Notes under the pieces: model-generated
Database searches by the model: none
Seen by the model: the letters and a program-made list of their open reading frames with translations, nothing else
What the model was told of the DNA's origin: nothing
Made by a program: the position numbers and the translations under genes
In this document: piece by piece, positions 2,844 through 31,942 of the stretch
Layout: the number at the start of each line of letters is the position of its first letter
Numbering within the stretch: the stretch's first letter is position 1
Source: a virus
Length of the DNA: 64,000 nt
Reading direction: 5' to 3' (one strand)
Virus record (IMG/VR): IMGVR_UViG_2936028420_000001
Span: 1,094-65,093 of that record

Positions 2844-3466
2844 TTCGGCCTCACGTCGAATTTCTGGAGGATGGCGCGGGCAACACCAACATCAAAACTA
2901 CAGCGCTCGCTATCCGTTTCTAGGCAAGCGCACGTGCCGCCCTCGGACTCGCAAATGACCTTGGTCAACTCGGCCTCGCTCACGCCCGAGCACGCTGCCG
3001 GAGTGAGAGCGTCTGATGACGCGATGCTCTCTGAATACAGCAGGCGAACATCTTGAATGTCGGGGGGCGGCGAATAGAACCCCCACACGCGGACAAGCAC
3101 GTTATCGTCACCTTGCGGCGCATATCCGGTCCAAGCGCATGGCGAAAGCTCGGCGGGAACGGTGCGAGCAGCGGCCCATTTGGCGCCAGCGAAGAACCCG
3201 GACCTAGCAGCCTCGTTAGGCAACATTAGCCCGACCGGCGTGCCCTGCTTATTCCATGACCAGTCATCGTAGGCTTGGTCGCAGCCGCTCGCCCCCTGGG
3301 CAGGTGGTTCGCCAATCGGCGCGCCTTCAGGCCATTTGCTGCCGGGTGTCAGGCCAGCTAAATGAACCTTTTTGCGCATGCAAAGGTTCGTCGCGCAGGC
3401 TTCCTTCGCGAAGCCGCATTCGCAGGTTGTCGCCCCTTGGGCAAGAACGTCTTTCTGTTCGCTCAT
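2840..3466 (-). CDS. Hypothetical phage protein
   Basis: Start MSEQKD via ATGA overlap. Confidence 0.6.
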   Translation of the reverse strand: MSEQKDVLAQGATTCECGFAKEACATNLCMRKKVHLAGLTPGSKWPEGAPIGEPPAQGASGCDQAYDDWSWNKQGTPVGLMLPNEAARSGFFAGAKWAAARTVPAELSPCAWTGYAPQGDDNVLVRVWGFYSPPPDIQDVRLLYSESIASSDALTPAACSGVSEAELTKVICESEGGTCACLETDSERCSFDVGVARAILQKFDVRPK

Positions 3467-4068: not shown

Positions 4069-4769
4069 GCTAGTTCCTCCGGTGATGCGGTGGATGGTTC
4101 GCTCTGTGATGGGTAGTCTCCGGGCCGTTCGAGCGATCGACGGCATGGTTGAATCCAAGTGAAGCGGGTGCCTTCGGCGCCGTCATTGAGCCACACCAGC
4201 CAGCAATAGGCGGTGGCGGTCGATCCCGTCGCGGTCAGCCGGCCTTTGACCATCGGCACGCGCTCGGTGAATTGAGCGACGATCGAGGGCGGCGCGACCT
4301 TGAACAGCTTCTCGTACCGCCCGACGCTTTCGAGGAAGCTGGTGCGAACAAGCATGGCGATGCCCTTCCAGCCCGGCACGGCGAATGCCTGCTGGATGAA
4401 GCGCTCCGCCGATTTGAAGGGCGGATTGGTCACGATAAAATCCGCCGGCCACGTTGGCTCGCCGAACAAGAAATCTGTCACTTTGGCGCCGATGCCATAG
4501 TCGAAGATGTCGCTGGCGAGCACTGAGCCGAAATACTCGGCGAGCGGTCGCGACATGTCGCCCATGCCACATGCAGGATCCCAAGCGGCCATCCTGCGCA
4601 GACGCATCCGGGCGATCTCCGGCGCGAGAGCGTATTCAGGCATCAGGACGTGCTCGATCAGGGCGCGCGTTGCCCATGGAGGTGTCGGGAAGAAATCGAG
4701 GCTGTCATTCGGCTCGCTTCGATCCTCCATGACCGACCGCCCCCCGGAGGGACGGAAGGTCTCAGGCAT
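4062..4769 (-). CDS. Orphan SAM-dependent DNA N6-adenine methyltransferase
   Basis: DFFPTPPW, motif I WDPACGMG, motif IV IVTNPPF; start at 4769 or 4730. Confidence 0.85.
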   Translation of the reverse strand: MPETFRPSGGRSVMEDRSEPNDSLDFFPTPPWATRALIEHVLMPEYALAPEIARMRLRRMAAWDPACGMGDMSRPLAEYFGSVLASDIFDYGIGAKVTDFLFGEPTWPADFIVTNPPFKSAERFIQQAFAVPGWKGIAMLVRTSFLESVGRYEKLFKVAPPSIVAQFTERVPMVKGRLTATGSTATAYCWLVWLNDGAEGTRFTWIQPCRRSLERPGDYPSQSEPSTASPEELAC

Positions 4770-19789: not shown

Positions 19790-22700
19790 CTAGTGTGATG
19801 GTTGTAGGCGCTGCACTTCCGCGCGAGCGTGGTTCTGCACCTCGCGAATTTTGTCTCTTAGCTCCGTCTCACTCAGGCTCTTGTTCTGGCGCAGGCCCTT
19901 GATCCGCTCATCGGCGCTCTTGAAGATCGATGCCTTGGTGGTCGGTGCCTCGCTCAGGAACTGCCGAGCCTCATCGGTATTGGTGCCGCCCTTCAGGTCT
20001 TTGCGCGCGGAGTTGATGCCTGCCTTGTCGTCGAGCGCCTCTTGCCGCTGTTCGTAATAGAGCGCGCGGTCGGCCTCCGGACCCACCTTGCCGACGAAGC
20101 GGCGCAGGATCGGCGTCTTTTCTGGCTGCCACTCGCCGCCGGTCGCGGTGTTGTAGAGCGTGTCCGCGATGCCCTTGGCGAAGCGGCCGACGCCGCCGGT
20201 GACGGCCTGCAACACATGGTCGATGCTGGCCGGATGTACGTCGATCGCGCCCGGCTGGTAGCTGCTGCCGCCGCTCCATGCGTTGAGGTCTTTCGCGGCT
20301 TCCTTCGAGAACGCGGAATTGCTCTTGAAAGCCTGCGAGGAGTCGGGCCGCACGCCTCGGTTCTTGTCCTGCTCCGGATAGAGCGGCTTGCCGGTCCAGT
20401 CCCGGTTGAACTCGATGTGGAAGGCCGGCCGGAGCGCGGAGGGAATGATATCCATCCACGTCGAGCTCTCCTCGCCCAGCGGGTTGAAGGCGCTCAGGAT
20501 CGAATCCATGATCGCGCTGGCAGCCTTGCCGGGCTTCTCCTTGCCCATCGCGACCGAGACGGCATGCGAGCCGATCACGGCAAACGGCGAGAAGCCGTAG
20601 GGCAGGGGCACCTTCAGATAGCGGTGCCCGCCCATCATGAACACGAGGTTCTTGTCGCGGTCCCAACTCGGGATCTTCATATAGTCGGAGACGCCGGCCT
20701 CGTCCGTGTCGCTGGCGAGGATCGAGTACAGCGTCGAGAGGGCGGCAGCTGCCGCGAGCGCGCCGACGGCCTGCCACACCCGGCGGTGACCGAGCGCGGT
20801 GGTCATGCGGGCGATGCCCTGGACGCCAGCATTGGCGAACATATAGAGCGCGGAGATGGCACTGCCGAGCTCGCCCTTCTTGTTGAAGTCGACCGTCAGG
20901 TTGCGCGCGAGCATCGCGGCGTCGGCCGTCGGGATTCCAGCTTCCTCCGCGGCCATGAAGGCGGCGAGGCGGGTTGCGTTCTCGATTCCGCCGCCGGCCA
21001 CCTCCAGCGCCTTGCCGGCCTTGTCGCCGATATCCTTGAGGGTGTTGACCGGGCCGCCCTCGAGCCGCTTGAGCTTCCGGCCCACGTTGGTCTCGATGGC
21101 GTCCGGATCCTCGATGCCGAAGAAGCGCACCCGGCCGCCCGCCTTGTCGAACCGGTGGAAGGCGTCGACATAGGGATCACCCGGCGCGGCGCCGGCGATG
21201 GCCTTCATTGATCCCTTCATCGCGCCCGGGATGTGCTTGATGAAGTTGCGGACGAAGCCGCGCTGCTGCTGCGCCTGCAGGTTGATGAACGCCTCGCCCA
21301 TGTCGCGGGCGAAGTTCGGAATCATGAACTCCGGATTGAACGAGGTGGCGAGCTTTGCCATCGTGTGAGTGATCGCGGAATAGGCCCGGATCAGCGCGTG
21401 GACGTTGGCGGTGCCCATGTTCTTGAGGCCGCGCGCCAGATTGAGCCCGTCGGGCCCGTGCAGCGCGATCGTGATGGTGCGGCCGTCAACCTTGGTCGAG
21501 AACTCGTTGTCCTTCAGCGCCGGCATGTTGTCGGGGATGGTGGTCACGAGCCCGGTATTCGGGTCGATCCGCTTAATGGGCTGCCGGCGGTTGATGGTCC
21601 AGCGGGCCGGATCAGGGTTGGCGCGGACAAATTGCAGGAAGGTGTTGCCCACACGGTTCTTTTCGGCCCTGACGATCGCCATCTCGGCTTGCATGATCGA
21701 GTAGGCGAGGGGAGAGGCGGCATCTGACTTGCGGCCGAAGGCGTTCTTGGCCTCCTTGCCGCGCACGTTCATGCCGCTGCCCTGGCGCGACATGGAGGCC
21801 TCGTCCTCGCTGCCGTCGGCCCAGCCGCGGAGCGGGACGTAATACTTGTAGCCGTTGTTCCAGGCATCGAAGGTGTCACGATCGATCAGACCGGCATCGA
21901 ACAGGGTGCGGCGGGTCTTGGCGTTGAGCGCGTCGATCATGCGGGCGACGGCGAGATAGTCCGGCAGTTTGCCAGCGTTCCGCAGGTCGCGGATGACCTG
22001 TAGTGCCTCGTTGGTCGACCAGCCGGAGCCGCCGACCTTATCGTGGTCCCTGATGGCATCGTAGAAGTCGTGGCCGGGCGTGTACATGGTGCCGATCGCG
22101 TTGTTGCGCTCGGGCGCGTGGCGGGCCTTGAGGAAGTTGTCGAGCTTCTCCACGTCGATGTCGCGCGCCTTCATCTCTCGGATGAGGGGATCGATGTGGT
22201 TCTCGGTCAGGGATTCCAGCCGCTGGCCGGTGCGGCCGTAGTACAGGCTCTCGGCCTGATACGCTGACTGGCTCGATGGCGCTCCAACCGACTCCTCGGC
22301 CTTCTTGACCCGCAGGAACTTGTCCTGCAGCTGCACGCGGATCTCGGTAGCGTTGATGTGACCCAGGCGACCGAGCAGCCGCGTGCGCAGGATGTCGGCG
22401 ATGGTGTTGTCGAAGGAGTTGGGGCCGCCCGGCTGGAAGGCGTTCGGTGGAGCGTTTAGCCCCAATCCCCCTTCTTCTTCTCGCGGATGGTCCGCTCGGC
22501 CAGCTTGATCGCCGCGTCGCGTCCCGCCGTCGGTTGCAGGGAACGCATTTCGGTCAAAAACTGCTCCCACGTCTCCAGGGTGTCGAACGGCCCGGGCGGG
22601 TCGATCATGTACTCGGCTGGCTTCATGGTTGGTCAGGCCCTTCTTGATGAGATCGGCGGCCTCGCTGATCGCTGTATCTATGCCGGGAACGCGCGATCGG

Positions 22701-25700
22701 AAGTCCGCATCGTCGAAATTCGTCCGATAGTCAATGAACCCGGCATCGTTGAGCACCACGTTGATGAGGTGGTGGTAGGCCGCGTTACCCTCGTCGGCAT
22801 TGATGGAGCCGGCGAGGAATGCCTCTCTGAGGGGCATTTTGAGCCGCCCTCCGATCGCAGCCGTCAGTCGCGCCACCTGATTGACCCGTGCAGTCCATTG
22901 CTCGGGCAGCATGGCCTTCGCGGTCGGGGTAACCTCGACACGGTAGGTGATGCCGTTGTGCCCGTGGGCGTAGACCGCGCGCATGCCGGGCGTGCTGGCC
23001 ATGGCGATGTCGGAATCGCTGAAGCTCCTCGACTCCGGGTGATTGTGGTGCGCGACGATATCCTCGGTGGGGTCGAGCAGGCGCGCGTAGAAGGCCGGCG
23101 AGATCGCGATGAAGCCCTTTGTGCCCTTGATGTCGCCATTGTCGACGACGTTGCCATGAGCGTCGTAGGCCATCAGATGCTCGGTGCTGGTCTCGCGGCC
23201 ATGCTGCAGAACATGCTTCTGGCCGGTTTCACCAAGCCGCCGCGCTTCGGGCGCCGGCGCCACATAGGCCCGCACGAGCCGATCCATGACGGCATCAGTC
23301 TCGGCACTCGCCAGCCCGGGCCCTGGACCATCGCCGCCCGGACCCTTGCCGGCCATCTGATCGAGGAACTTCTGGCGGTCCTCGGCCGACTTGAACTGGA
23401 AGCCCGGGATGGCGCCGTTGCCCTTGAAGCTGGAATAGTAGCCGCCGTTGGCCTTCGCCACGGCATTCATCTGGCTATAGGCGGTGCTCTCGACGCGCTC
23501 GTTCGCGGTCGCGACATAGAGCTTCGCCTTGGTCTTGGCGTGGATGGTCTCTCCGGTTTTGAAGGTGATGCCCTTCGGCGCGCTCGGCGGCGCGCCCGGT
23601 GCCCGTTGTGTCTCGGCCGGCTCCGGCTTGGCGACGGCATCGAGGAATTTCTGGCGCTCCTCGGTGGTGCCGAAACGGAAGCTTTTGGCGGTCTTGACGT
23701 ACTCGCCCTTGGTGGTCTCGACCGCTCGCATTAGCGCGCGGAATCGCTCCGGCCCGATGAAATTCTTGAGGTCGGCCGCGTGCACGTCGCCGCGCTTGCT
23801 GCTCTGCAAGGTGAAGTCGACGCCGTTGATGGTGACCTTGCCCTCGGTCGGGATGTCGATGTCGGGGGTTGCCGGCTCGAGCCGCTGGCCCATGTCGGCG
23901 TTCTCGATGCGATCGAATAGGTCGCCGATGGTCTCGACGTCGCTATAGTCGCGGCTCTTTTGCTGCAACTGCTTGGCGATATGAGCGTCGGTCTGCTTCT
24001 CCAACACGACGATGCGGGCCGAGATCGACGTGCCCGCGCGCTCGAAGGTGATCGCCGGCAGGTTCACGTCGCCGACGATATAGATGCCCTTGGCGGCCGG
24101 GCCATCCATGAACTTGTCGAACTTCGCGTCGGTTGATCCGCGCGAAATCAGCGCAACAATACGGCCGCCGTTCTTCAGGTGGCTCGCCGCCTTCTCCAGA
24201 TGGTCGATCGCGGTCTTACCGCCGGAGCCGAACGGCGGGTTCATCACGATGGCGTCGAACTTGTTGGCGCCCTTGTCGAGATTCTCGAAGCGGTCGACGA
24301 CGACGCGCGCGCCGGGCGAGGTCAGCGCCGCGCGGCTGGCGAGCGAGCTCGACGGCTCCACCAGGGTGCGCGCGGTGTCCTCGGGGAAGTAGCGCGCGAT
24401 GGCGCCGTGCCCGGCCGACGGCTCAAGGATCTTCTCGCCTGATTTGATACCGGCGAACTCGACCATCTTGAGGCCGATCGGCTCCGGCGTGGCGTAATAG
24501 TCAGTACCCTCGCGCTGATCGCGCCGGCCGGTGGTCTTGCCGTTCGCGAAATAGTGCGTCTTGGCCTTGTCGAATTCTGAGACGCTGTGCGAAAGCGCGC
24601 GGTCGATCTCCTTGCCGCCCTTGCCTTCGCCCGGCTCCGGTGCGAAGTCCCCGGCGCCGGAGAAGGCGTCGATGAAGGATTGCCGGATGGTGCGGGCCTG
24701 ATCGCCCAGGGCGAGGTTTTCCGCGGTGCCGGCGCGCTCCGCGATCTTGCCGGCGAACGTCCAGCGCTCCCAATCGGTGCCGGTGTTCATGTAGCGGAAG
24801 ATCGCATCGGACGACTGGCCGACGCGATAGATGCGGCCTTCCTGCTGGATCGAGGTGGTCGGCCGGATCGGCATACCGAGATTGAGCAGCACGCGCTGCT
24901 TCTTGCCGGTGGTGTCGTGCAGGCTGATGCCCGCCTCGCCAGCGGCCGACTGCACGATGATGATGTCGCGGCCGGAGTTGTCGTCGTTGAACAGTGCCTT
25001 GTCCAGATTCCGAACCTTGTTCGAGACGGTGCCGTTGTAGACCATGGCGTCGGGGAATGCCTTGGTCAGCTCGGCGATCGGCGCGTCATAGTCCGAGAAC
25101 TTCAGATCCTTGATGTACGGATTCTGCGCGCGGAAATCGTCGTAGAGGTCTTTCAGTTTCACCTCAGACGGTTTGCCATCCACGTAGGTGGTGACCTTGA
25201 CCGACGGCGGTACCGCGAGATCGAATGGGTTGATGCCGCCGCCCTCGTTATAGTCGTGGAACACCACGATCTTTCGGCCGAGATCGAGGGACTGCCGGAT
25301 GAACGGGACCGCCGCGCGCGCCTTGATGGCTTCGAGCAGACGCATGCGCGTCAGATAGTCGAACTGTTTCGAGATGACTTCGTGCAGCGGCCGGTACCGG
25401 CCGCCCTCGGCCTCCTGAAGGAAGCTGAGGGCTTGGTCGATCTGTTGGCCGACGGCATCGTGTGCGAGCACGAACTTGCGGTCATAGTCCTTGTCCACGG
25501 TCAGCGCTCGGCCGGACAGCGAGCCCTGCTTCTTCAGGTACTCGTGAAGCTGGCGCTCCATCACCTCGGATTTGACATCGGCGTCCGGCTTGGTGAGCCG
25601 GTTGGTCCGCATCCGGTAGCCGAGATGCTGCATGTAGAACGCGGCGCGGCCGTCGCCGGAATTGTAGCGCGATCCGGAGCGGTCCTTGTCGAACTCGAAC

Positions 25701-28700
25701 AGGTACCCCTCGGCATAGTCGAGGGAGAAGTGATATGCGAACGGCGTCGCGCTCATGAACAGCGCCTTGGGGCGCTGCTCGTCCCGCCACTTTTCGATCA
25801 GCGGCGCGGCTTTCTTCTCGAACGCTGCATAGGCCGCGCCCTGTTCGTTCTTCGGCAGATGCTCGATGCGGTCATAGTCGGCGCGCAGCACCATGCGGGC
25901 GCGCTCCGTCAGACCATCAGGGTGCTTGGTGATGGCGCGAAGCGTGCGCAGTGCTTCAGTGACGGTACCGTTCTGATCGGACGAAAGCTTGTGCGCCTCA
26001 TCCGGAACGACCAGATCCCACTCGCGATCAGCGAGCGTACGGTTGGCACCGAGATTGGCATAGGTGGTGCCGACCAGACCTTTTCGACCATTGCTCGCGG
26101 TGTCGTCGAGCACCCGCATGTCGAGACCAAGGTCTTTGGCCGACTTCACCCAATCCATCAGGATGCCCTGCGAGGGCGCGACCACCAGGGTGTTCGTCTT
26201 GCCCTTCATCGCGAAGCGCTTGATGACGCCCAGGCCGGAATAGGTCTTGCCGGTACCGGTGCCGTTGGTGAACAGCATGCCGTGGCCGTCGGGCTTCGCG
26301 TAGCGCTGCTCGGCTTTCTGCACGTCGGTGTGCTGCTCGGGGAACAGCATCGGCAGCGTGTCGGCAATGTTGCCGAGGTCGCCGGGCTTGACCGCGATGC
26401 CTTCGGCCTTGCGCTGACGCTCGCGGCGCGCGTTTAGGTCGGCGTCTTTTTGAGCATTTCGGACAGCTTCATCAGTTGCCCCGTCGTCAAACGAAAATCC
26501 CTTCTCGCTATCGTGAGAGCTTCGGCTCGACTCTCGATCGGCGGGATCGCTACCCTCATCGACGGGTTCGCGAGCAGGAAGTTCGAGATGGCCTGATGCT
26601 CCCACAACAGGGGCATGATCTTGAGGTACGCGCTCGCCACTTGCGGGTCGTTCGTCTCCCGCGTCAGCCGGGCTTCCTCGTTCTCCAGCGCCTTGTCCAG
26701 TTGATCCTGCGGCAGCGGGAACATCTGCTTTGCCCAATCCGTCGCGAGCTTCTGGCTCTCCGCGATCTGATTCCAGTACGTCGCTGCGGCTTGGTGCATC
26801 GATAGTCTCCTTGCCGGAGGTCACGTCCTCGGTGAACCGGCGAATATACGGCTTCATCGCCCGGATGGCGTCAGCATCCATGCCGGCGACGCTCAGATGG
26901 CGCACCAGCGCCCGCACCATGGTGGCGAGATCGGCACCACCGCCACTGAAATGCGCTACGCCAGCCTTGAAGAAGGGCAGGGCCTGCCGGTATTTGTCGT
27001 CATCGAGCGTGAACGGCTGCTCGCCCTCGGCTAGACCTTTGTCCTTGCCGAACAGTTTGCCAAGCCCTTTTGCCACCTGATCGATGTCAAGTGACATTTT
27101 TGGCGCGAATTCTGCGTCAATCGCCTGATCGAAGATGTCGTCGAAGGCGTCCTTCGGCGGAGCCGGCGGCTTCTTGGCCACCATGTCGAGCAGGTCGGTC
27201 TGCTTGTGACCATCGCCGAACAGGCCGTCGTCGGCCGCCTTCTGGTTGGCCTTCGGCTTGAGCGGTGCATCGGCGCCGCGCTGCGCCATGGTCTTGTCGG
27301 CGGCCTTCTCGGCGCCTGGAATGACGGTCTGCTGCTTGTTGTCGGCGCCGGTCTCGGTGATGACGGCCGGTTTCTTCGGCTCGCCGCCCGGCGGAGTGAT
27401 GTTCTCGCCCGGAGTACCCCACTGCACATTAAGATGATTTCCAGCAACGGGCGCTGTAACGAACATGACGTGCTTGCGATCAGGAGACCACAGCGCTGAT
27501 CCCTTGCCGTATTTCGCCTGAGTCCAACCGCGTGATTCCGCCGTGCTGCCGAAAAGCTCTGCGCTTGTGGTCGGTGCGATATCCGTGTCCATACGTCCGG
27601 CGGCGATCTCGCTCTCGACGTGATCGAGGAAGGAGTCGACCGTCTCTTTGCTCTCGGGCTTCGGCGGAGTGGCGCGAACCGGCGACTGTGCTTCTTCGCC
27701 GCGGAGCCGGCGCCGCGCCTCGATCATCATGGCGCGCGCGGCTTCGCGTCCGAACACTTCCTCGTAGCTGGCGGCGGTATCGACGGCCTCGCGTCCATAG
27801 GTGGAGCGCTCGCCCTGCAATGCCTTGATGGCATCCTCGGGCTTCTGCTTCTTCTTGAGCTTGGCCTTGCCGCTGCGGATGTCGGCGATCTTCTCGTCGA
27901 TCGCACGCACCTGGGACAACGCGGACATGATGCCGTTCATGCCCTCGTCGACGACGCCGACAACATTCTCGACGTCGAAGTGCTCGCCATCCTCGATATC
28001 GAAAACCGAGCGGCCCTCGCGTGCGAGTGCATCGAGCACCTTCGGGTCAGGTGCTGGCCATGTGTCGTTGAAGTCCCACGGGCCCTTGCGCGAGAGCGTG
28101 ACGTGCACGGTCTCGTCGCTGTCTCCGGCTGGAATGTCGGCGCTGGTACCGTCTAGATCGCGGAGGGATCGCTCGGCTTCGGCGGAATCTTCGGCGCGGC
28201 CTTCGCGACCTGTACGGGCGGCGTTGCTGCCGGTGTCGGGCTGTTCGCCTTTGGCGTCGGGCTCGGTGCGTCCGGCGTCATTCCGCCGGTCCCCGCCTTC
28301 TGCGCCAGCAACCGCGTCGCCTGGGCGAGGCTCGCGAGGCGCAGCTTCTTCAGGCCCGTGGCCTTCTGCGCCTTCGCGTGCAAGGTTGTCGCCATAGCCT
28401 GATGCTGCTTGCGCGTAAATCTCATCGTCAACCTCGTGACCATAGATAGCATGGAATTCGGCCTGCGCATCCTTTTCTTCGGAGATCAGCTGCATGACCG
28501 CCGTTTCGACCGCCTCGGGCGCGTCGAGCTCGGTCGACGACATCAGTTGCAGCGCGCGCGCCTTGATCTCCGGCGCCAAGTGGCCGTGGCCGGTGCGCTC
28601 GAGCGCATCGACGAACTCTTGGATCTTCGCTTCTTCGTGAGCGCCGCGTTCAGCCTCGGCTGATTGCTCGGCCTTGGTCTTGGTGTCCTCGTGGCCTTCC

Positions 28701-31700
28701 GGATAGCGATGCTGTCCGCGGATTCCGTCATCGATCGCGTCGAGAAATTCCGCGACCGTGCTGGTGCCTTCGGCGGAGCCTCGGAAATAGCCTGCTTCCT
28801 CGGCCGCCTCGCGCGCGCGGTCGAGATCCATGCCGCCATCTTTGACCAGCTTGCGGCGGGGCGGGAACCCCTGCATCGCGACGGAATGCTTGTGGGCATC
28901 CATCACCGCGAGTTCCGGATGCGGCTTCAGGCCGCCCTTGCTGGCGATGAATTGGAGCAGGTTTTGGGGCTCTTTCGCGCCCGTTTTTGCCGTTTTGTCC
29001 CGGCCGCGCCCTTGTTGCGGTGCAGCAGGTTCCGAACCTATGTTATTGACTACGGCCGGAGTCGCCTGTTTGGTACCGGCTAGGGCAGCATCTTTAGGAA
29101 GCGAAGGGTTACCCCCCAGCGCATCTTGGCCGCCCTGTAAGGCCTTGTCCGGAGTGTGATGGCTCTCGGATTTGGTTAAGGCGGGCTCCGGAGTGTGATG
29201 GCTCTCGGGGCCCGCCGCACCAATCTCTTTGACCGGTTTCGTTGTGTCGGTTTGCAACCAAGCCTGAAACTTCTCAGGCGTCATTGCAACAACGTGACCA
29301 ATGCGACTTTCGCCGTGGTCACTGTACGAATCCGCATAGGCCCGCATCGCTGCATCGGGCCCTGGGAATCCGATCATAATCTTGTGTTCATCCCACGCGC
29401 CCGTTTTCGGGTCGTGCTGATCGATGACGAAGATATCGCCGCCGGGCCCAAGATGTACGTCGAGCGGCTGACCGTCGCCGCCGACTGTGCCCTTAATCCG
29501 ACCGTAAGGGTACTTGAGCGTGACCTCCCACGGATTACCGTCTGGATCGACGCCTTTACGAACTTGCCCGGCGCCGGTCTCGACCGAGATCGAGTGCTTG
29601 CCGACAAGCCCGAGAGCGGGGATTTCAAGGTGAGTGTGCCGGTAGTTTTCAGCTTCCGCCTGGGCCTGCGATTTAGGCTCGTCAGGCCGCGCCTTCATCG
29701 CGGCATCGATATGCTCGACGGACTCAACTCGGATTGGTTTGTCGCGAGTGCCGGCGCCTAACTCGGGAGAAACTTCCCGTCCGGCCCGTGTTGCATCGGC
29801 GGCGGCTGATTTCTCGTCGGAGAGAGAAGCTTGTTCGGAGACGTCATTCCTCGACGCAACCGCTGCCTGATCGCCCCCTTCGACAGCCCCATTCTGATTG
29901 CCGCTTGCGATGCGTTTTCCGTCACCCCATTCACTGTTACCATCACGACGTTCCTGCGGTTCTCCGCCTGCTGGGCTCTTGTCGCCCACTGCATGTTCCC
30001 CGGAACGTAACCCTTGTCGTTCTCGATCCGATCCAGCGACAGATCGGGGCTCGGACGTCGACCCACCGCCATCAAGAACGTCGGGAAGTCGTTTTCCCAC
30101 TCCAGAGCCATCTTGATCCCCCTCGCTCCGTAGTTCTTGTACGCGTGATCCGTCGGGTTGTTGCACCTCCCCTTGATGTTCTTCCAGATCTTGTATTCCG
30201 GCAGCCTGCTCATCCCGTGCTTGGTTGGGTACGTCATTCTTCTCTCCCGGCGATGGTCGCGACCTGCCAGTTTTCATGGCGGCCTGATACGCCTTGCTCC
30301 GCTGTTCCGGAGTCATAGCCTTGACCCAAGATGGGTCCCAGCCCTTCGCAATCAAGGCATCGCGCTCTGCTCGATCAGTCGCAACAGCCTCGCGAGCGGC
30401 TTTTTCGTCTGCGGTTTCCGGCTTCGCCGTATACCCCGTGGACGAAGTATCCCTCATCTGTTCATTCACAGCATTGAACAGATCGGCGTCCGACATCTTG
30501 CTGACGTCGACGCTCGGATCGAACATCCGGTGCAGCTTCTCCATCTTCGCGCGCATCCGCGCGTCCATGGTGTAGTCCGCACCCATGCCCTCGCCGGTGC
30601 CGGGGGGCGGCTTGCCGGGCTCGGGGCCCTGTCCGGATCGCTGGTTGGATTGTTGGTTGCCCGCACCGCCTGGCCCAGGCTGAGGGCCGCCGCCGGGATT
30701 GGGGCCAGCGCCAGCCGCTCCAGCCTGATCGTCCCAGCCACGGCGCTGCCAGTCGCGGGCTTCCTGCTCGGCGCGCGCGCGGGCCGCATCCGGTCCCGGG
30801 CCGCCCATGTCGGGTCCGCCGCCAGGGAGCGCGCCGCCCGGCGCCGGGGAGGCGCCGCTAGTGTCGCTGGAGGTGTCCTGCCGGGTCTCCGGGCCCCTGC
30901 GCTCGAACGCATGATGCAGGCCGCCCATGCCGGCGCCGAGGATCAATTCCGCGATGATGCGCTTCTGATCGAGTGTGTAGCCAGCCTTCGGATCGTAGTC
31001 CTTGGCGATCTCTTGGAGGATGGCTTCCTGCGCCTCGCCGAGCGTCGTGAATGCGGCAGCGGAGACCGCGACCTTCGCGATCAGGCCCTGCGCATATTTG
31101 CCGGCACCGAGCGGCAGGCTGCCGAGCACGCCGGCGACCAGGGCGGACTTCGCCGCCGTCGCATTGGCCTCGTCGTCGGTCTTGCCTGCGGCCTTCGATG
31201 CCTCGAAGACGCTGCCGTAGGTGTCGAGCGCCATGCCGCTGGCGGCGGCGGTAAGACCGACCAGCGGGCCTGCGGCGAGCGTCGCTGCACCATAAGCGGC
31301 GATCGAGCCCGCGCCGGTACCGATCCGGCCGCCGATTGAATCCTTCTCCTGCGGCGTCATCGGCGCGACGGTTTGCGCAAAATCCTGTGTTGCCTGTCCT
31401 GCCTTGTAGAGCGTGCGATCCTGCAGCGGCTTCGCCGGTACCGCGGCGGCCGGCGCATTGACCATGCCGGTGGCATTGCCCATGGCGTCGTACTGCGGCG
31501 TCTCAGGCTGCTCGGGGATGCCGTTGTCGTACAGCGCGGCCGCGCCCTTGAGCGTGCCGCCAGCAGTCGAGATCGCGCCGTGCGGGATGCCCTTGGCGGC
31601 CGCGACCGCCTGCCGGCTGATCGTGAGCGGCGGGACTTCCGGACCTTCCGGCGTGACGGGCGTGCCGAACTTGGAGAGGTCATCCGTCGACGGCTCGGGC

Positions 31701-31942
31701 GCGGCCTCGTCCTTGACCTTCGTGCCAAAGCTTGAGAGGTCCGGCCCCTTCGGCTCGTCCGGTGCGACGTTGAAATCGACGTTGGAATCGCGCGTCGGCT
31801 TGATCGAGAGCTTACGCGCCAGCCGATCGGTCAGAACCTTGGGGTTCGACGAATACGGCTGGCCGTCGTCCGGCTGATACTGCTCGAGCAGGCTATCGCG
31901 AAGCTGGGATTGTCCCGATCCGAAAACGTCGTCGAAGGCCAT
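19790..31942 (-). CDS. Giant polyvalent DarB-like ejection protein: InPase-like, SF2 helicase, N6-MTase, JAB, LPD38-like domains
   Basis: 4050 aa. InPase-like ~29270-29690 (YGRIKGTVGGDGQPLDV..DEHKIMIGF); helicase NGTGTGKT/DEAH/SATP and QQEGRIYR ~24750-26330; MTase EPSAGHG/NPPF ~23990-24520; JAB HNHP..S..D ~22960-23260; C-terminal ENATRLAAF..ARNLTVDFNKKG. Confidence 0.9.
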   Translation of the reverse strand: MAFDDVFGSGQSQLRDSLLEQYQPDDGQPYSSNPKVLTDRLARKLSIKPTRDSNVDFNVAPDEPKGPDLSSFGTKVKDEAAPEPSTDDLSKFGTPVTPEGPEVPPLTISRQAVAAAKGIPHGAISTAGGTLKGAAALYDNGIPEQPETPQYDAMGNATGMVNAPAAAVPAKPLQDRTLYKAGQATQDFAQTVAPMTPQEKDSIGGRIGTGAGSIAAYGAATLAAGPLVGLTAAASGMALDTYGSVFEASKAAGKTDDEANATAAKSALVAGVLGSLPLGAGKYAQGLIAKVAVSAAAFTTLGEAQEAILQEIAKDYDPKAGYTLDQKRIIAELILGAGMGGLHHAFERRGPETRQDTSSDTSGASPAPGGALPGGGPDMGGPGPDAARARAEQEARDWQRRGWDDQAGAAGAGPNPGGGPQPGPGGAGNQQSNQRSGQGPEPGKPPPGTGEGMGADYTMDARMRAKMEKLHRMFDPSVDVSKMSDADLFNAVNEQMRDTSSTGYTAKPETADEKAAREAVATDRAERDALIAKGWDPSWVKAMTPEQRSKAYQAAMKTGRSRPSPGEKNDVPNQARDEQAAGIQDLEEHQGEVQQPDGSRVQELRSEGDQDGSGVGKRLPDVLDGGGSTSEPRSVAGSDRERQGLRSGEHAVGDKSPAGGEPQERRDGNSEWGDGKRIASGNQNGAVEGGDQAAVASRNDVSEQASLSDEKSAAADATRAGREVSPELGAGTRDKPIRVESVEHIDAAMKARPDEPKSQAQAEAENYRHTHLEIPALGLVGKHSISVETGAGQVRKGVDPDGNPWEVTLKYPYGRIKGTVGGDGQPLDVHLGPGGDIFVIDQHDPKTGAWDEHKIMIGFPGPDAAMRAYADSYSDHGESRIGHVVAMTPEKFQAWLQTDTTKPVKEIGAAGPESHHTPEPALTKSESHHTPDKALQGGQDALGGNPSLPKDAALAGTKQATPAVVNNIGSEPAAPQQGRGRDKTAKTGAKEPQNLLQFIASKGGLKPHPELAVMDAHKHSVAMQGFPPRRKLVKDGGMDLDRAREAAEEAGYFRGSAEGTSTVAEFLDAIDDGIRGQHRYPEGHEDTKTKAEQSAEAERGAHEEAKIQEFVDALERTGHGHLAPEIKARALQLMSSTELDAPEAVETAVMQLISEEKDAQAEFHAIYGHEVDDEIYAQAASGYGDNLAREGAEGHGPEEAAPREPRPGDAVAGAEGGDRRNDAGRTEPDAKGEQPDTGSNAARTGREGRAEDSAEAERSLRDLDGTSADIPAGDSDETVHVTLSRKGPWDFNDTWPAPDPKVLDALAREGRSVFDIEDGEHFDVENVVGVVDEGMNGIMSALSQVRAIDEKIADIRSGKAKLKKKQKPEDAIKALQGERSTYGREAVDTAASYEEVFGREAARAMMIEARRRLRGEEAQSPVRATPPKPESKETVDSFLDHVESEIAAGRMDTDIAPTTSAELFGSTAESRGWTQAKYGKGSALWSPDRKHVMFVTAPVAGNHLNVQWGTPGENITPPGGEPKKPAVITETGADNKQQTVIPGAEKAADKTMAQRGADAPLKPKANQKAADDGLFGDGHKQTDLLDMVAKKPPAPPKDAFDDIFDQAIDAEFAPKMSLDIDQVAKGLGKLFGKDKGLAEGEQPFTLDDDKYRQALPFFKAGVAHFSGGGADLATMVRALVRHLSVAGMDADAIRAMKPYIRRFTEDVTSGKETIDAPSRSDVLESDRGEPEARDGLGKADVPAAAGSTGQGAGERGSPADAGDERPASGERVPQDHAPVVGASGHLELPAREPVDEGSDPADRESSRSSHDSEKGFSFDDGATDEAVRNAQKDADLNARRERQRKAEGIAVKPGDLGNIADTLPMLFPEQHTDVQKAEQRYAKPDGHGMLFTNGTGTGKTYSGLGVIKRFAMKGKTNTLVVAPSQGILMDWVKSAKDLGLDMRVLDDTASNGRKGLVGTTYANLGANRTLADREWDLVVPDEAHKLSSDQNGTVTEALRTLRAITKHPDGLTERARMVLRADYDRIEHLPKNEQGAAYAAFEKKAAPLIEKWRDEQRPKALFMSATPFAYHFSLDYAEGYLFEFDKDRSGSRYNSGDGRAAFYMQHLGYRMRTNRLTKPDADVKSEVMERQLHEYLKKQGSLSGRALTVDKDYDRKFVLAHDAVGQQIDQALSFLQEAEGGRYRPLHEVISKQFDYLTRMRLLEAIKARAAVPFIRQSLDLGRKIVVFHDYNEGGGINPFDLAVPPSVKVTTYVDGKPSEVKLKDLYDDFRAQNPYIKDLKFSDYDAPIAELTKAFPDAMVYNGTVSNKVRNLDKALFNDDNSGRDIIIVQSAAGEAGISLHDTTGKKQRVLLNLGMPIRPTTSIQQEGRIYRVGQSSDAIFRYMNTGTDWERWTFAGKIAERAGTAENLALGDQARTIRQSFIDAFSGAGDFAPEPGEGKGGKEIDRALSHSVSEFDKAKTHYFANGKTTGRRDQREGTDYYATPEPIGLKMVEFAGIKSGEKILEPSAGHGAIARYFPEDTARTLVEPSSSLASRAALTSPGARVVVDRFENLDKGANKFDAIVMNPPFGSGGKTAIDHLEKAASHLKNGGRIVALISRGSTDAKFDKFMDGPAAKGIYIVGDVNLPAITFERAGTSISARIVVLEKQTDAHIAKQLQQKSRDYSDVETIGDLFDRIENADMGQRLEPATPDIDIPTEGKVTINGVDFTLQSSKRGDVHAADLKNFIGPERFRALMRAVETTKGEYVKTAKSFRFGTTEERQKFLDAVAKPEPAETQRAPGAPPSAPKGITFKTGETIHAKTKAKLYVATANERVESTAYSQMNAVAKANGGYYSSFKGNGAIPGFQFKSAEDRQKFLDQMAGKGPGGDGPGPGLASAETDAVMDRLVRAYVAPAPEARRLGETGQKHVLQHGRETSTEHLMAYDAHGNVVDNGDIKGTKGFIAISPAFYARLLDPTEDIVAHHNHPESRSFSDSDIAMASTPGMRAVYAHGHNGITYRVEVTPTAKAMLPEQWTARVNQVARLTAAIGGRLKMPLREAFLAGSINADEGNAAYHHLINVVLNDAGFIDYRTNFDDADFRSRVPGIDTAISEAADLIKKGLTNHEASRVHDRPARAVRHPGDVGAVFDRNAFPATDGGTRRGDQAGRADHPREEEGGLGLNAPPNAFQPGGPNSFDNTIADILRTRLLGRLGHINATEIRVQLQDKFLRVKKAEESVGAPSSQSAYQAESLYYGRTGQRLESLTENHIDPLIREMKARDIDVEKLDNFLKARHAPERNNAIGTMYTPGHDFYDAIRDHDKVGGSGWSTNEALQVIRDLRNAGKLPDYLAVARMIDALNAKTRRTLFDAGLIDRDTFDAWNNGYKYYVPLRGWADGSEDEASMSRQGSGMNVRGKEAKNAFGRKSDAASPLAYSIMQAEMAIVRAEKNRVGNTFLQFVRANPDPARWTINRRQPIKRIDPNTGLVTTIPDNMPALKDNEFSTKVDGRTITIALHGPDGLNLARGLKNMGTANVHALIRAYSAITHTMAKLATSFNPEFMIPNFARDMGEAFINLQAQQQRGFVRNFIKHIPGAMKGSMKAIAGAAPGDPYVDAFHRFDKAGGRVRFFGIEDPDAIETNVGRKLKRLEGGPVNTLKDIGDKAGKALEVAGGGIENATRLAAFMAAEEAGIPTADAAMLARNLTVDFNKKGELGSAISALYMFANAGVQGIARMTTALGHRRVWQAVGALAAAAALSTLYSILASDTDEAGVSDYMKIPSWDRDKNLVFMMGGHRYLKVPLPYGFSPFAVIGSHAVSVAMGKEKPGKAASAIMDSILSAFNPLGEESSTWMDIIPSALRPAFHIEFNRDWTGKPLYPEQDKNRGVRPDSSQAFKSNSAFSKEAAKDLNAWSGGSSYQPGAIDVHPASIDHVLQAVTGGVGRFAKGIADTLYNTATGGEWQPEKTPILRRFVGKVGPEADRALYYEQRQEALDDKAGINSARKDLKGGTNTDEARQFLSEAPTTKASIFKSADERIKGLRQNKSLSETELRDKIREVQNHARAEVQRLQPSH
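22456..22626 (-). CDS. Nested 56-aa protein in +1 frame of giant gene (not in ORF track)
   Basis: MKPAEYMIDPPGPFDTLETWEQFLTEMRSLQPTAGRDAAIKLAERTIREKKKGDWG; GC3-rich in nested frame. Confidence 0.6.
   Translation of the reverse strand: MKPAEYMIDPPGPFDTLETWEQFLTEMRSLQPTAGRDAAIKLAERTIREKKKGDWG
26434..26799 (-). CDS. Nested 121-aa helical protein in +1 frame of giant gene
   Basis: AAGGAG-7 nt-ATG; natural globular composition; GC3-rich in nested frame. Confidence 0.75.
   Translation of the reverse strand: MHQAAATYWNQIAESQKLATDWAKQMFPLPQDQLDKALENEEARLTRETNDPQVASAYLKIMPLLWEHQAISNFLLANPSMRVAIPPIESRAEALTIARRDFRLTTGQLMKLSEMLKKTPT
28153..28425 (-). CDS. Nested 90-aa basic protein in +1 frame of giant gene
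   Basis: GAGG-6 nt-ATG; MRFTRKQHQAMATTLHAKAQK...; codon bias favours nested frame. Confidence 0.55.
   Translation of the reverse strand: MRFTRKQHQAMATTLHAKAQKATGLKKLRLASLAQATRLLAQKAGTGGMTPDAPSPTPKANSPTPAATPPVQVAKAAPKIPPKPSDPSAI
29758..30237 (-). CDS. Nested HNH homing-endonuclease-like gene in +1 frame of giant gene
   Basis: YKNYGARGI...SLDRIENDKGYVPGNMQWATRAQQAENRR plus C-terminal HTH-like part; GGGAG RBS. Confidence 0.85.
   Translation of the reverse strand: MTYPTKHGMSRLPEYKIWKNIKGRCNNPTDHAYKNYGARGIKMALEWENDFPTFLMAVGRRPSPDLSLDRIENDKGYVPGNMQWATRAQQAENRRNVVMVTVNGVTENASQAAIRMGLSKGAIRQRLRRGMTSPNKLLSPTRNQPPPMQHGPDGKFLPS

Follow-up and report, generated by a model that had tools for sequence, protein, structure and literature searches.

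Why should a complete small open reading frame (ORF) lie out of frame inside a giant virion gene, immediately after a module that resembles a JAB-type enzyme? The question is raised by a stretch of viral DNA of 64,000 nucleotides (nt), positions 1,094 to 65,093 of the IMG/VR virus record IMGVR_UViG_2936028420_000001, the whole of which is called the window here. An ORF of 4050 amino acids (aa) on its minus strand (19790..31942) encloses a second, same-strand ORF of 56 aa, P0001 (22456..22626), which lies wholly within it in the +1 frame. Judged by sequence comparison, P0001 is confirmed as a real observation and a genuine embedded gene. By analogy with known systems, its product may be the dedicated partner of the JAB-like module, most likely an inhibitor of the immunity type, a reading that we hold with about even confidence.

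The initial annotation had placed a 56-aa ORF at 22456-22626 in the +1 frame, preceded at about 11 nt by a rather weak ribosome-binding site, AAGGG, and situated just downstream of a JAB module. All three statements hold. The translation is identical, the strand is minus, the start codon ATG occupies 22626-22624 and the stop codon TAA 22458-22456, and the offset from the start of the giant ORF (31942-22626 = 9316, mod 3 = 1) gives the +1 frame. The AAGGG, a weak Shine-Dalgarno-like site by its resemblance to the consensus only, is at 22638..22642 on the minus strand, 11 nt 5' of the ATG; purine-rich stretches are also present 5' of the start codon in most homologous loci. The HHNHPESRSFSDSD motif of the JAB-like module is located at ~23050-23010, and the end of the module is at most ~10 nt from the start of P0001. 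A TGA in the small frame (22635-22633) lies three codons 5' of the ATG, and an alternative ATG (Met7) is found at 22608, at the conserved core of P0001, so that the true start may be either the 22626 or the 22608 ATG. At every locus of the family compared here, the start codon (ATG; GTG in locus L010) is situated 0-10 codons 5' of the core motif. The surroundings of the P0001 start show neither a promoter-like site nor a terminator, nor any notable RNA structure; therefore, as far as is visible, P0001 shares the mRNA of the giant gene. Coupling of the two readings by frameshifting and subsequent reinitiation was also considered and is unsupported, the +1-frame stop 5' of the small-gene start being at a variable distance (2 to >13 codons).

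The length of P0001 alone is not beyond chance, because 28 stop-to-stop stretches of at least 50 codons are present in the +1 frame within the giant gene. Over positions 22456-22632, the small frame has a G+C content at third codon positions (GC3) of 0.86, vs 0.48 for the giant frame, which elsewhere has values of 0.8-0.95. This inversion of GC3, together with protein homology and the conserved position after the JAB-like module, argues that P0001 is a gene beyond what chance would give.

The initial annotation had singled out a motif of the peptide as a means of finding relatives, and the peptide is indeed conserved. In a homology search of 1.84 billion representative proteins, 86 representative clusters match P0001 at E<1e-3 and 4 at E<1e-10. 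Most members of this family have 50-90 aa and share the motif h-I-D-P-P-x-P-F-x-T-L-E-x-W-E-x-x-L, followed by a second helix ending in A-E-x-x-I-A-x-K; some are stand-alone genes, as in loci L005 and L007. P0001 has no family match in Pfam (E<=0.01), PHROGs (E<=0.1) or NCBIfam (E<=1); for its relatives, scans at E up to 1 yielded nothing beyond chance-level rows far below threshold. Likewise, an Atlas search with the small protein returned no usable match, and a single-protein scan of viral contigs returned none. The AlphaFold2 model made with the family alignment has a predicted local distance difference test score (pLDDT) of 85 for P0001, and >90 for residues 10-50. In the model, an extended N-terminal segment is followed by two helices, 17-29 and 34-51; a fold search with it retrieved generic helical hairpins only (E>2). 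At locus L022, the giant gene encloses a second, weaker family member (i-E 4e-10; 4161-4610), again at +1 and 1.4 kb downstream of the first. In addition, the small-protein motif is matched significantly and in frame within two large defence-type proteins, P0011 (1656 aa, Toprim; E 5e-9) and P0024 (1443 aa, TIR/STAND; E 2e-6).

The JAB/MPN-fold (RadC-like) module that precedes P0001 occupies 22634..23224 on the minus strand, corresponding to residues ~2907-3103 of the giant protein, and contains a conserved E, HHNHP, S..D and AHGH.G. Its residues E15, H60, H62, S69 and D72 are invariant in an alignment of six sequences and are also kept in a wider set. Thus the JAMM catalytic motif (E, HxH, S..D) is present, with a spacing between HxH and S that, as read from the sequence, is one residue below the canonical x7. 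The structure model of the module has a pLDDT of 87.9 and a predicted template modelling score (pTM) of 0.85. All of its 50 top structural matches (Foldseek, VIA) are JAMM/MPN proteins, including AMSH, PfJAMM1, Rpn11, CSN5, BubCD and RadC, with Z of 5-6.6 over ~110-120 residues, which are moderate values in a uniform list. Meanwhile, the Pfam families JAB, Prok-JAB, RadC and DUF4329/Tox-JAB-2 do not match residues 2860-3110 of the giant protein (P0002; hmmscan, E up to 1), where only a sub-threshold DUF7465 row appears, nor does the whole 4050-aa protein match any JAB-type family. The sole match of the module is the unannotated phrog_10691. Since the structural matches are exclusively JAMM/MPN and no Pfam JAB or RadC profile matches, the module appears to be a divergent RadC-like member of the JAB superfamily. 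Given the invariant residues of catalytic type, it is plausible that the module is an active enzyme. A tree of the JAB-like modules, which bears on whether the nested state arose once, has long branches and gives no resolution.

Is the small gene tied to this module? A total of 23 IMG/VR loci were fetched by the JAB-module pattern [VI][IAV]HHNHPx[NSD] alone, and their six-frame ORFs were then searched with the profile of the small family. A family member was found 11-344 nt past the end of the JAB match in 21 of the 23 loci. One of the two remaining loci (L020) is a contig end, and the other (L030) has a divergent ORF of 68 aa that overlaps the stop codon and shows the same helix pattern. The co-occurrence with JAB modules that the initial annotation had put forward as a check is thus borne out in loci that were selected without reference to the peptide.

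When the window, the phages PBC5 and 45A6 and a Bradyrhizobium prophage were also taken in, the loci fell into two states. In the nested state (18 distinct elements), the JAB frame continues into a giant ORF that without exception encloses the small gene at +1; the giant frame runs for at least 197 codons past the JAB match, in most cases to the end of the fetched locus. In the unfused state (7 loci), a MuF (PF04233) head protein of ~475-580 aa has the JAB-like domain at its C-terminal end. The start of the small gene coincides with the stop codon of this MuF-JAB gene or follows it closely, and the small gene may occupy any of the three frames relative to it. All unfused carriers have this composition of MuF, JAB-like domain and small ORF at the stop. 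A recognisable family member is present in six of the seven and a look-alike in the seventh, always at the stop codon. The initial annotation had regarded an effector/immunity-like arrangement as possible, and the layout of these unfused loci lends support to it. In phage 45A6, the module and the small gene are found together before the helicase and not after the methyltransferase. Because the pair sits at a different position there, module and small gene seem to move as one cassette. In the deposited genomes of PBC5 (RefSeq) and 45A6, the giant coding sequence is the only annotated feature on that strand at the match.

The dual-coding stretch (22440..22633, minus strand) is read in the giant frame as a spacer rich in R, G, D, A and P (approximately residues 3104-3168), which joins the JAB-like module to the C-terminal LPD38 part. 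When the nested copies are compared as translations, they share 40% of their amino acids in the small frame, against 27.5% in the giant frame and 32% in the remaining one. Variation is lowest at the third codon position of the giant frame, contrary to what a coding frame would show. For the five closest pairs, the ratio of non-synonymous to synonymous differences (pN/pS) is 0.67 in the small frame vs 1.03 in the giant frame. This substitution pattern appears supportive of the small frame, not decisive. The giant frame is free of stops in 18/18 nested loci, and the other frame contains 1-5 stops per locus. When synonymous codons were redrawn for each small protein, an open giant frame was expected with a probability of 0.03-0.49 per locus (mean 0.22; window 0.42); as the loci are related, multiplying these probabilities does not yield a P-value. 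Part of the explanation lies in composition. The GC3 of the small gene is 0.74-0.90 across nested loci, and the giant frame, which is the -1 frame of the small gene, is poor in stops because a stop there needs T at the G+C-rich third position of the small gene. Stops in the -1 frame are nonetheless present in most unfused and orphan copies, and the excess of open giant frames over expectation appears clear. From these patterns, both readings look to be maintained, the small frame for its sequence and the giant frame only for staying open. At the end of the small gene (22455-22475, minus strand), the giant frame reads GAAGAAGGGGGA TTG, with a strong purine-rich stretch beside the TTG. The C-terminal LPD38 part might thereby be initiated on its own, although the spacing seems too short for this.

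Members of the small family also occur without the module, as orphan and tandem copies in integrative elements. The neighbours of orphan copies are resolvase, integrase and ArdC-N/MPTase genes and, judging by eye from the sequence, possibly a restriction-type gene. Small domains in tandem two-copy form (125-177 aa) and fusions to other unknown domains were found at L036, L037, L040:7001-7522, L041:7001-7432 and L039:5001-5963. These loci are integrative elements in which integrases, resolvase, ArdC-N/MPTase and DUF3987 genes lie nearby and the JAB-like module is absent. Another member, P0015, heads an operon, beside a helix-turn-helix (HTH) repressor.

These observations can be combined in the following model. 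P0001 would be translated by internal initiation on the giant-gene mRNA, in the +1 frame, through DNA that is otherwise read as a flexible spacer. The module and the small gene would constitute one cassette. In simple phages, the module would be the C-terminal cargo of a MuF protein with the small gene at its stop; in polyvalent genes, the upstream frame would have lost its stop, so as to read across the small gene in the only naturally stop-poor frame and to join the next domain. The small protein would bind the JAB-like domain and prevent its activity in the producing cell, in the manner of an immunity protein that restrains a toxin domain. At packaging the inhibitor would stay behind, and the action of the enzyme, once packaged and ejected, would be confined to the newly infected cell.

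In MuF toxins of temperate phages, the small ORF directly after the cargo domain has been taken as immunity (Jamet et al. 2017, PMC5576092), and the JAB-type toxin domains Tox-JAB-1 and Tox-JAB-2 have predicted immunity proteins (Zhang et al. 2012, PMC3482391). An inhibitor of the immunity type is favoured because the unfused layout is that of the MuF toxin/immunity pairs and because JAB toxins have such predicted partners. In addition, the orphan and tandem copies without a module would fit the behaviour of orphan immunity genes. The likeness to the MuF pairs is close in the seven related loci, each with a MuF head protein, a JAB-like C-terminal cargo and a small gene at or just after the stop, and it extends to the window insofar as a small ORF directly follows the cargo domain (start ~10 nt from the module end). 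However, the 4050-aa protein of the window has no Phage_Mu_F match; its JAB-like module is internal, and the small gene is embedded out of frame and not downstream of the gene. Moreover, the module of the window lacks a DUF4329/Tox-JAB-2 match, and the small protein does not match any described immunity family.

Several observations weigh against an immunity-type inhibitor. The Shine-Dalgarno-like site is weak and far from the ATG, and the substitution tests draw on few, related and near-saturated sequences. No natural in-frame fusion of JAB and peptide was found, searches for longer proteins giving tandem duplicates only. Classical immunity needs expression in the lysogen, which is unsupported because no promoter-like site lies nearby, and a lytic producer cell may need no protection. 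Adjacency to the module would equally suit an activator, a chaperone or a packaging adaptor. Finally, for RadC-type JAB domains, activity as a peptidase and as a nucleic-acid enzyme have both been considered (PMC5512222).

What else could the embedded gene be? The most serious competitor, still clearly the lesser bet, is that P0001 is a real, JAB-linked gene whose product is not an inhibitor. The JAB-like domain might depend on it as an obligatory cofactor, activator or adaptor, or as a chaperone for folding or packaging, just as MPN enzymes often have a partner subunit. The evidence of linkage to the JAB-like module is the same for such a partner and is fitted equally well by it; the JAMM enzymes Rpn11 and CSN5, which are among the top structural matches, act in obligate complexes, and no sign of lysogen expression was found. 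A cofactor, chaperone or adaptor is disfavoured only because of the orphan copies and the analogy: orphan and tandem copies in mobile elements without the module better suit a neutraliser of incoming enzymes, and MuF cargo with a small downstream ORF is the described toxin/immunity layout (PMC5576092). It is rather improbable that the small gene has a function of its own apart from the JAB-like enzyme, such as early regulation or anti-defence, and co-travels with it through physical interlocking. Such a role would accommodate the family members fused to other domains, the position of P0015 at an operon head by an HTH repressor, and the members in elements without a JAB-like module. However, nothing forces pairing in the unfused MuF-JAB loci, yet 6/7 keep a member, the seventh a look-alike, and always at the stop; the cassette also shifts as a unit among positions in polyvalent genes.

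Two further explanations question the status of one reading or the other. We consider it quite unlikely that the nested copy is a fossil, that is, a formerly separate gene which was swallowed by read-through from upstream and has lost its translation, so that the frame and the similarity are leftovers. The weak ribosome-binding site of the window, 11 nt away, and the commonness of plain +1 open stretches of such length in the giant gene would agree with a fossil. Against it, all 18 distinct nested copies, at ~40% identity, still have a start codon and the core motif in an uninterrupted frame; pN/pS is lower in the small frame than in the giant frame, and GC3 is still coding-like (0.74-0.90). 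Least credible of all is that the 4050-aa ORF is not one protein and consists of separate true genes, the giant frame being open across the small gene by chance or through an assembly artefact. Although the chance of an open frame at a single locus is not small (0.42 for the window), 18/18 loci are open, and hundreds of further codons in the same frame encode homologous domains; the deposited PBC5 and 45A6 genomes show the same open frame, and there is no stop to end the upstream part. We retain a dedicated, immunity-type inhibitor as the preferred reading of P0001.

The Rz/Rz1 spanin genes of lambdoid phages provide a precedent for a small gene that is fully embedded in another, in the +1 frame and on the same strand, and their products are expected to cooperate. 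P0001 is similar in being a complete same-strand ORF inside another, at +1, with both frames apparently under selection. It differs in that neither its proteins nor the process have any relation to the spanins; moreover, the host frame encodes the spacer of a giant virion protein, and the pair also exists unembedded. Out-of-frame HNH endonuclease genes hidden in phage DNA methylase genes have been described as well (Arsenault, Gosselin and Gogarten 2025, PMC11855218). In common with them, P0001 is a complete gene in another frame across which the host gene stays open; unlike them, it has no nuclease family match and is not sporadic, being found after the module in essentially every relative. 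Because of this presence in essentially every JAB-like relative, P0001 behaves as a fixed partner and not as a homing element.

The host gene itself resembles the polyvalent proteins, including those like DarB of P1 (Iyer et al. 2017, PMC5512222), in that it encodes a multi-domain virion protein with InPase, SF2 helicase (ResIII/DEAD), methyltransferase, JAB-like and LPD38 parts, and its homologue in PBC5 is annotated as 'DarB-like antirestriction'. It is situated in a virion module, between the genes for a DNA-ejection protein and an endolysin and downstream of the portal, major head and tail fibre genes. RadC-type JAB domains are among the listed domains of polyvalent proteins and are suspected to act on nucleic acids in them (PMC5512222). 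By a term search, that paper seems not to contain out-of-frame genes embedded in spacers, the word 'nested' being used there of a hairpin structure only (PMC5512222). Embedded phage genes and toxin/immunity-like pairs are each known; the variant of them seen here involves an unannotated small family and an uncharacterised JAB clade.

The giant gene contains other embedded ORFs. One is a complete HNH endonuclease gene of 159 aa (29758-30237, minus strand; phrog_3377, E 2e-45), likewise at +1 relative to the giant frame, whose GC3 falls to 0.47 across it. At 26434-26799 on the minus strand, an ORF of 121 aa in the +1 frame has a coding-type GC3 of 0.79 vs 0.44 and, like the HNH gene, is credible. 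In P0065, from a bacterial genome remnant (L006:5686-6711), part of the giant frame is fused in one frame with a homologue of the 121-aa protein and a member of the 56-aa family. Another +1 ORF, of 105 aa at 28153-28470 (minus strand), is doubtful as a gene: it shows the GC3 shift, but its product looks of low complexity and is without homologue support. The shift there may come from G-starting codons of the spacer, which is rich in E, G, A and D. Since this ORF shows the shift in the absence of homologue support, GC3 alone is an unsafe criterion for a gene.

P0001 is missed by gene callers, and therefore a small-protein family tied to an uncharacterised JAB/RadC-like enzyme has been largely invisible. 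The pair also offers an experimental handle on the role of RadC-type JAB domains in ejected phage proteins, whether as a peptidase or as a nucleic-acid enzyme (PMC5512222). For the polyvalent proteins, it indicates that they can grow by fusing across a neighbouring gene in the one stop-free frame of a G+C-rich gene, with the neighbour kept, and the other embedded genes in the same giant gene mean that this may be a general rule of construction and not a curiosity. The most far-reaching version of the model, in which giant polyvalent genes are built by reading through whole small genes with linkers that are doubly coding, the embedded gene encodes the inhibitor of a RadC-like JAB effector, and the orphan copies in hosts and mobile elements confer immunity, is tentative, and we would sooner doubt than assert it as a whole. 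If it is true, an embedded inhibitor that is left behind at packaging would be a built-in timer, by which the enzyme is turned on only after ejection into a new host, and the orphan copies of hosts and mobile elements, often in tandem, would be an immunity against incoming JAB-like enzymes.

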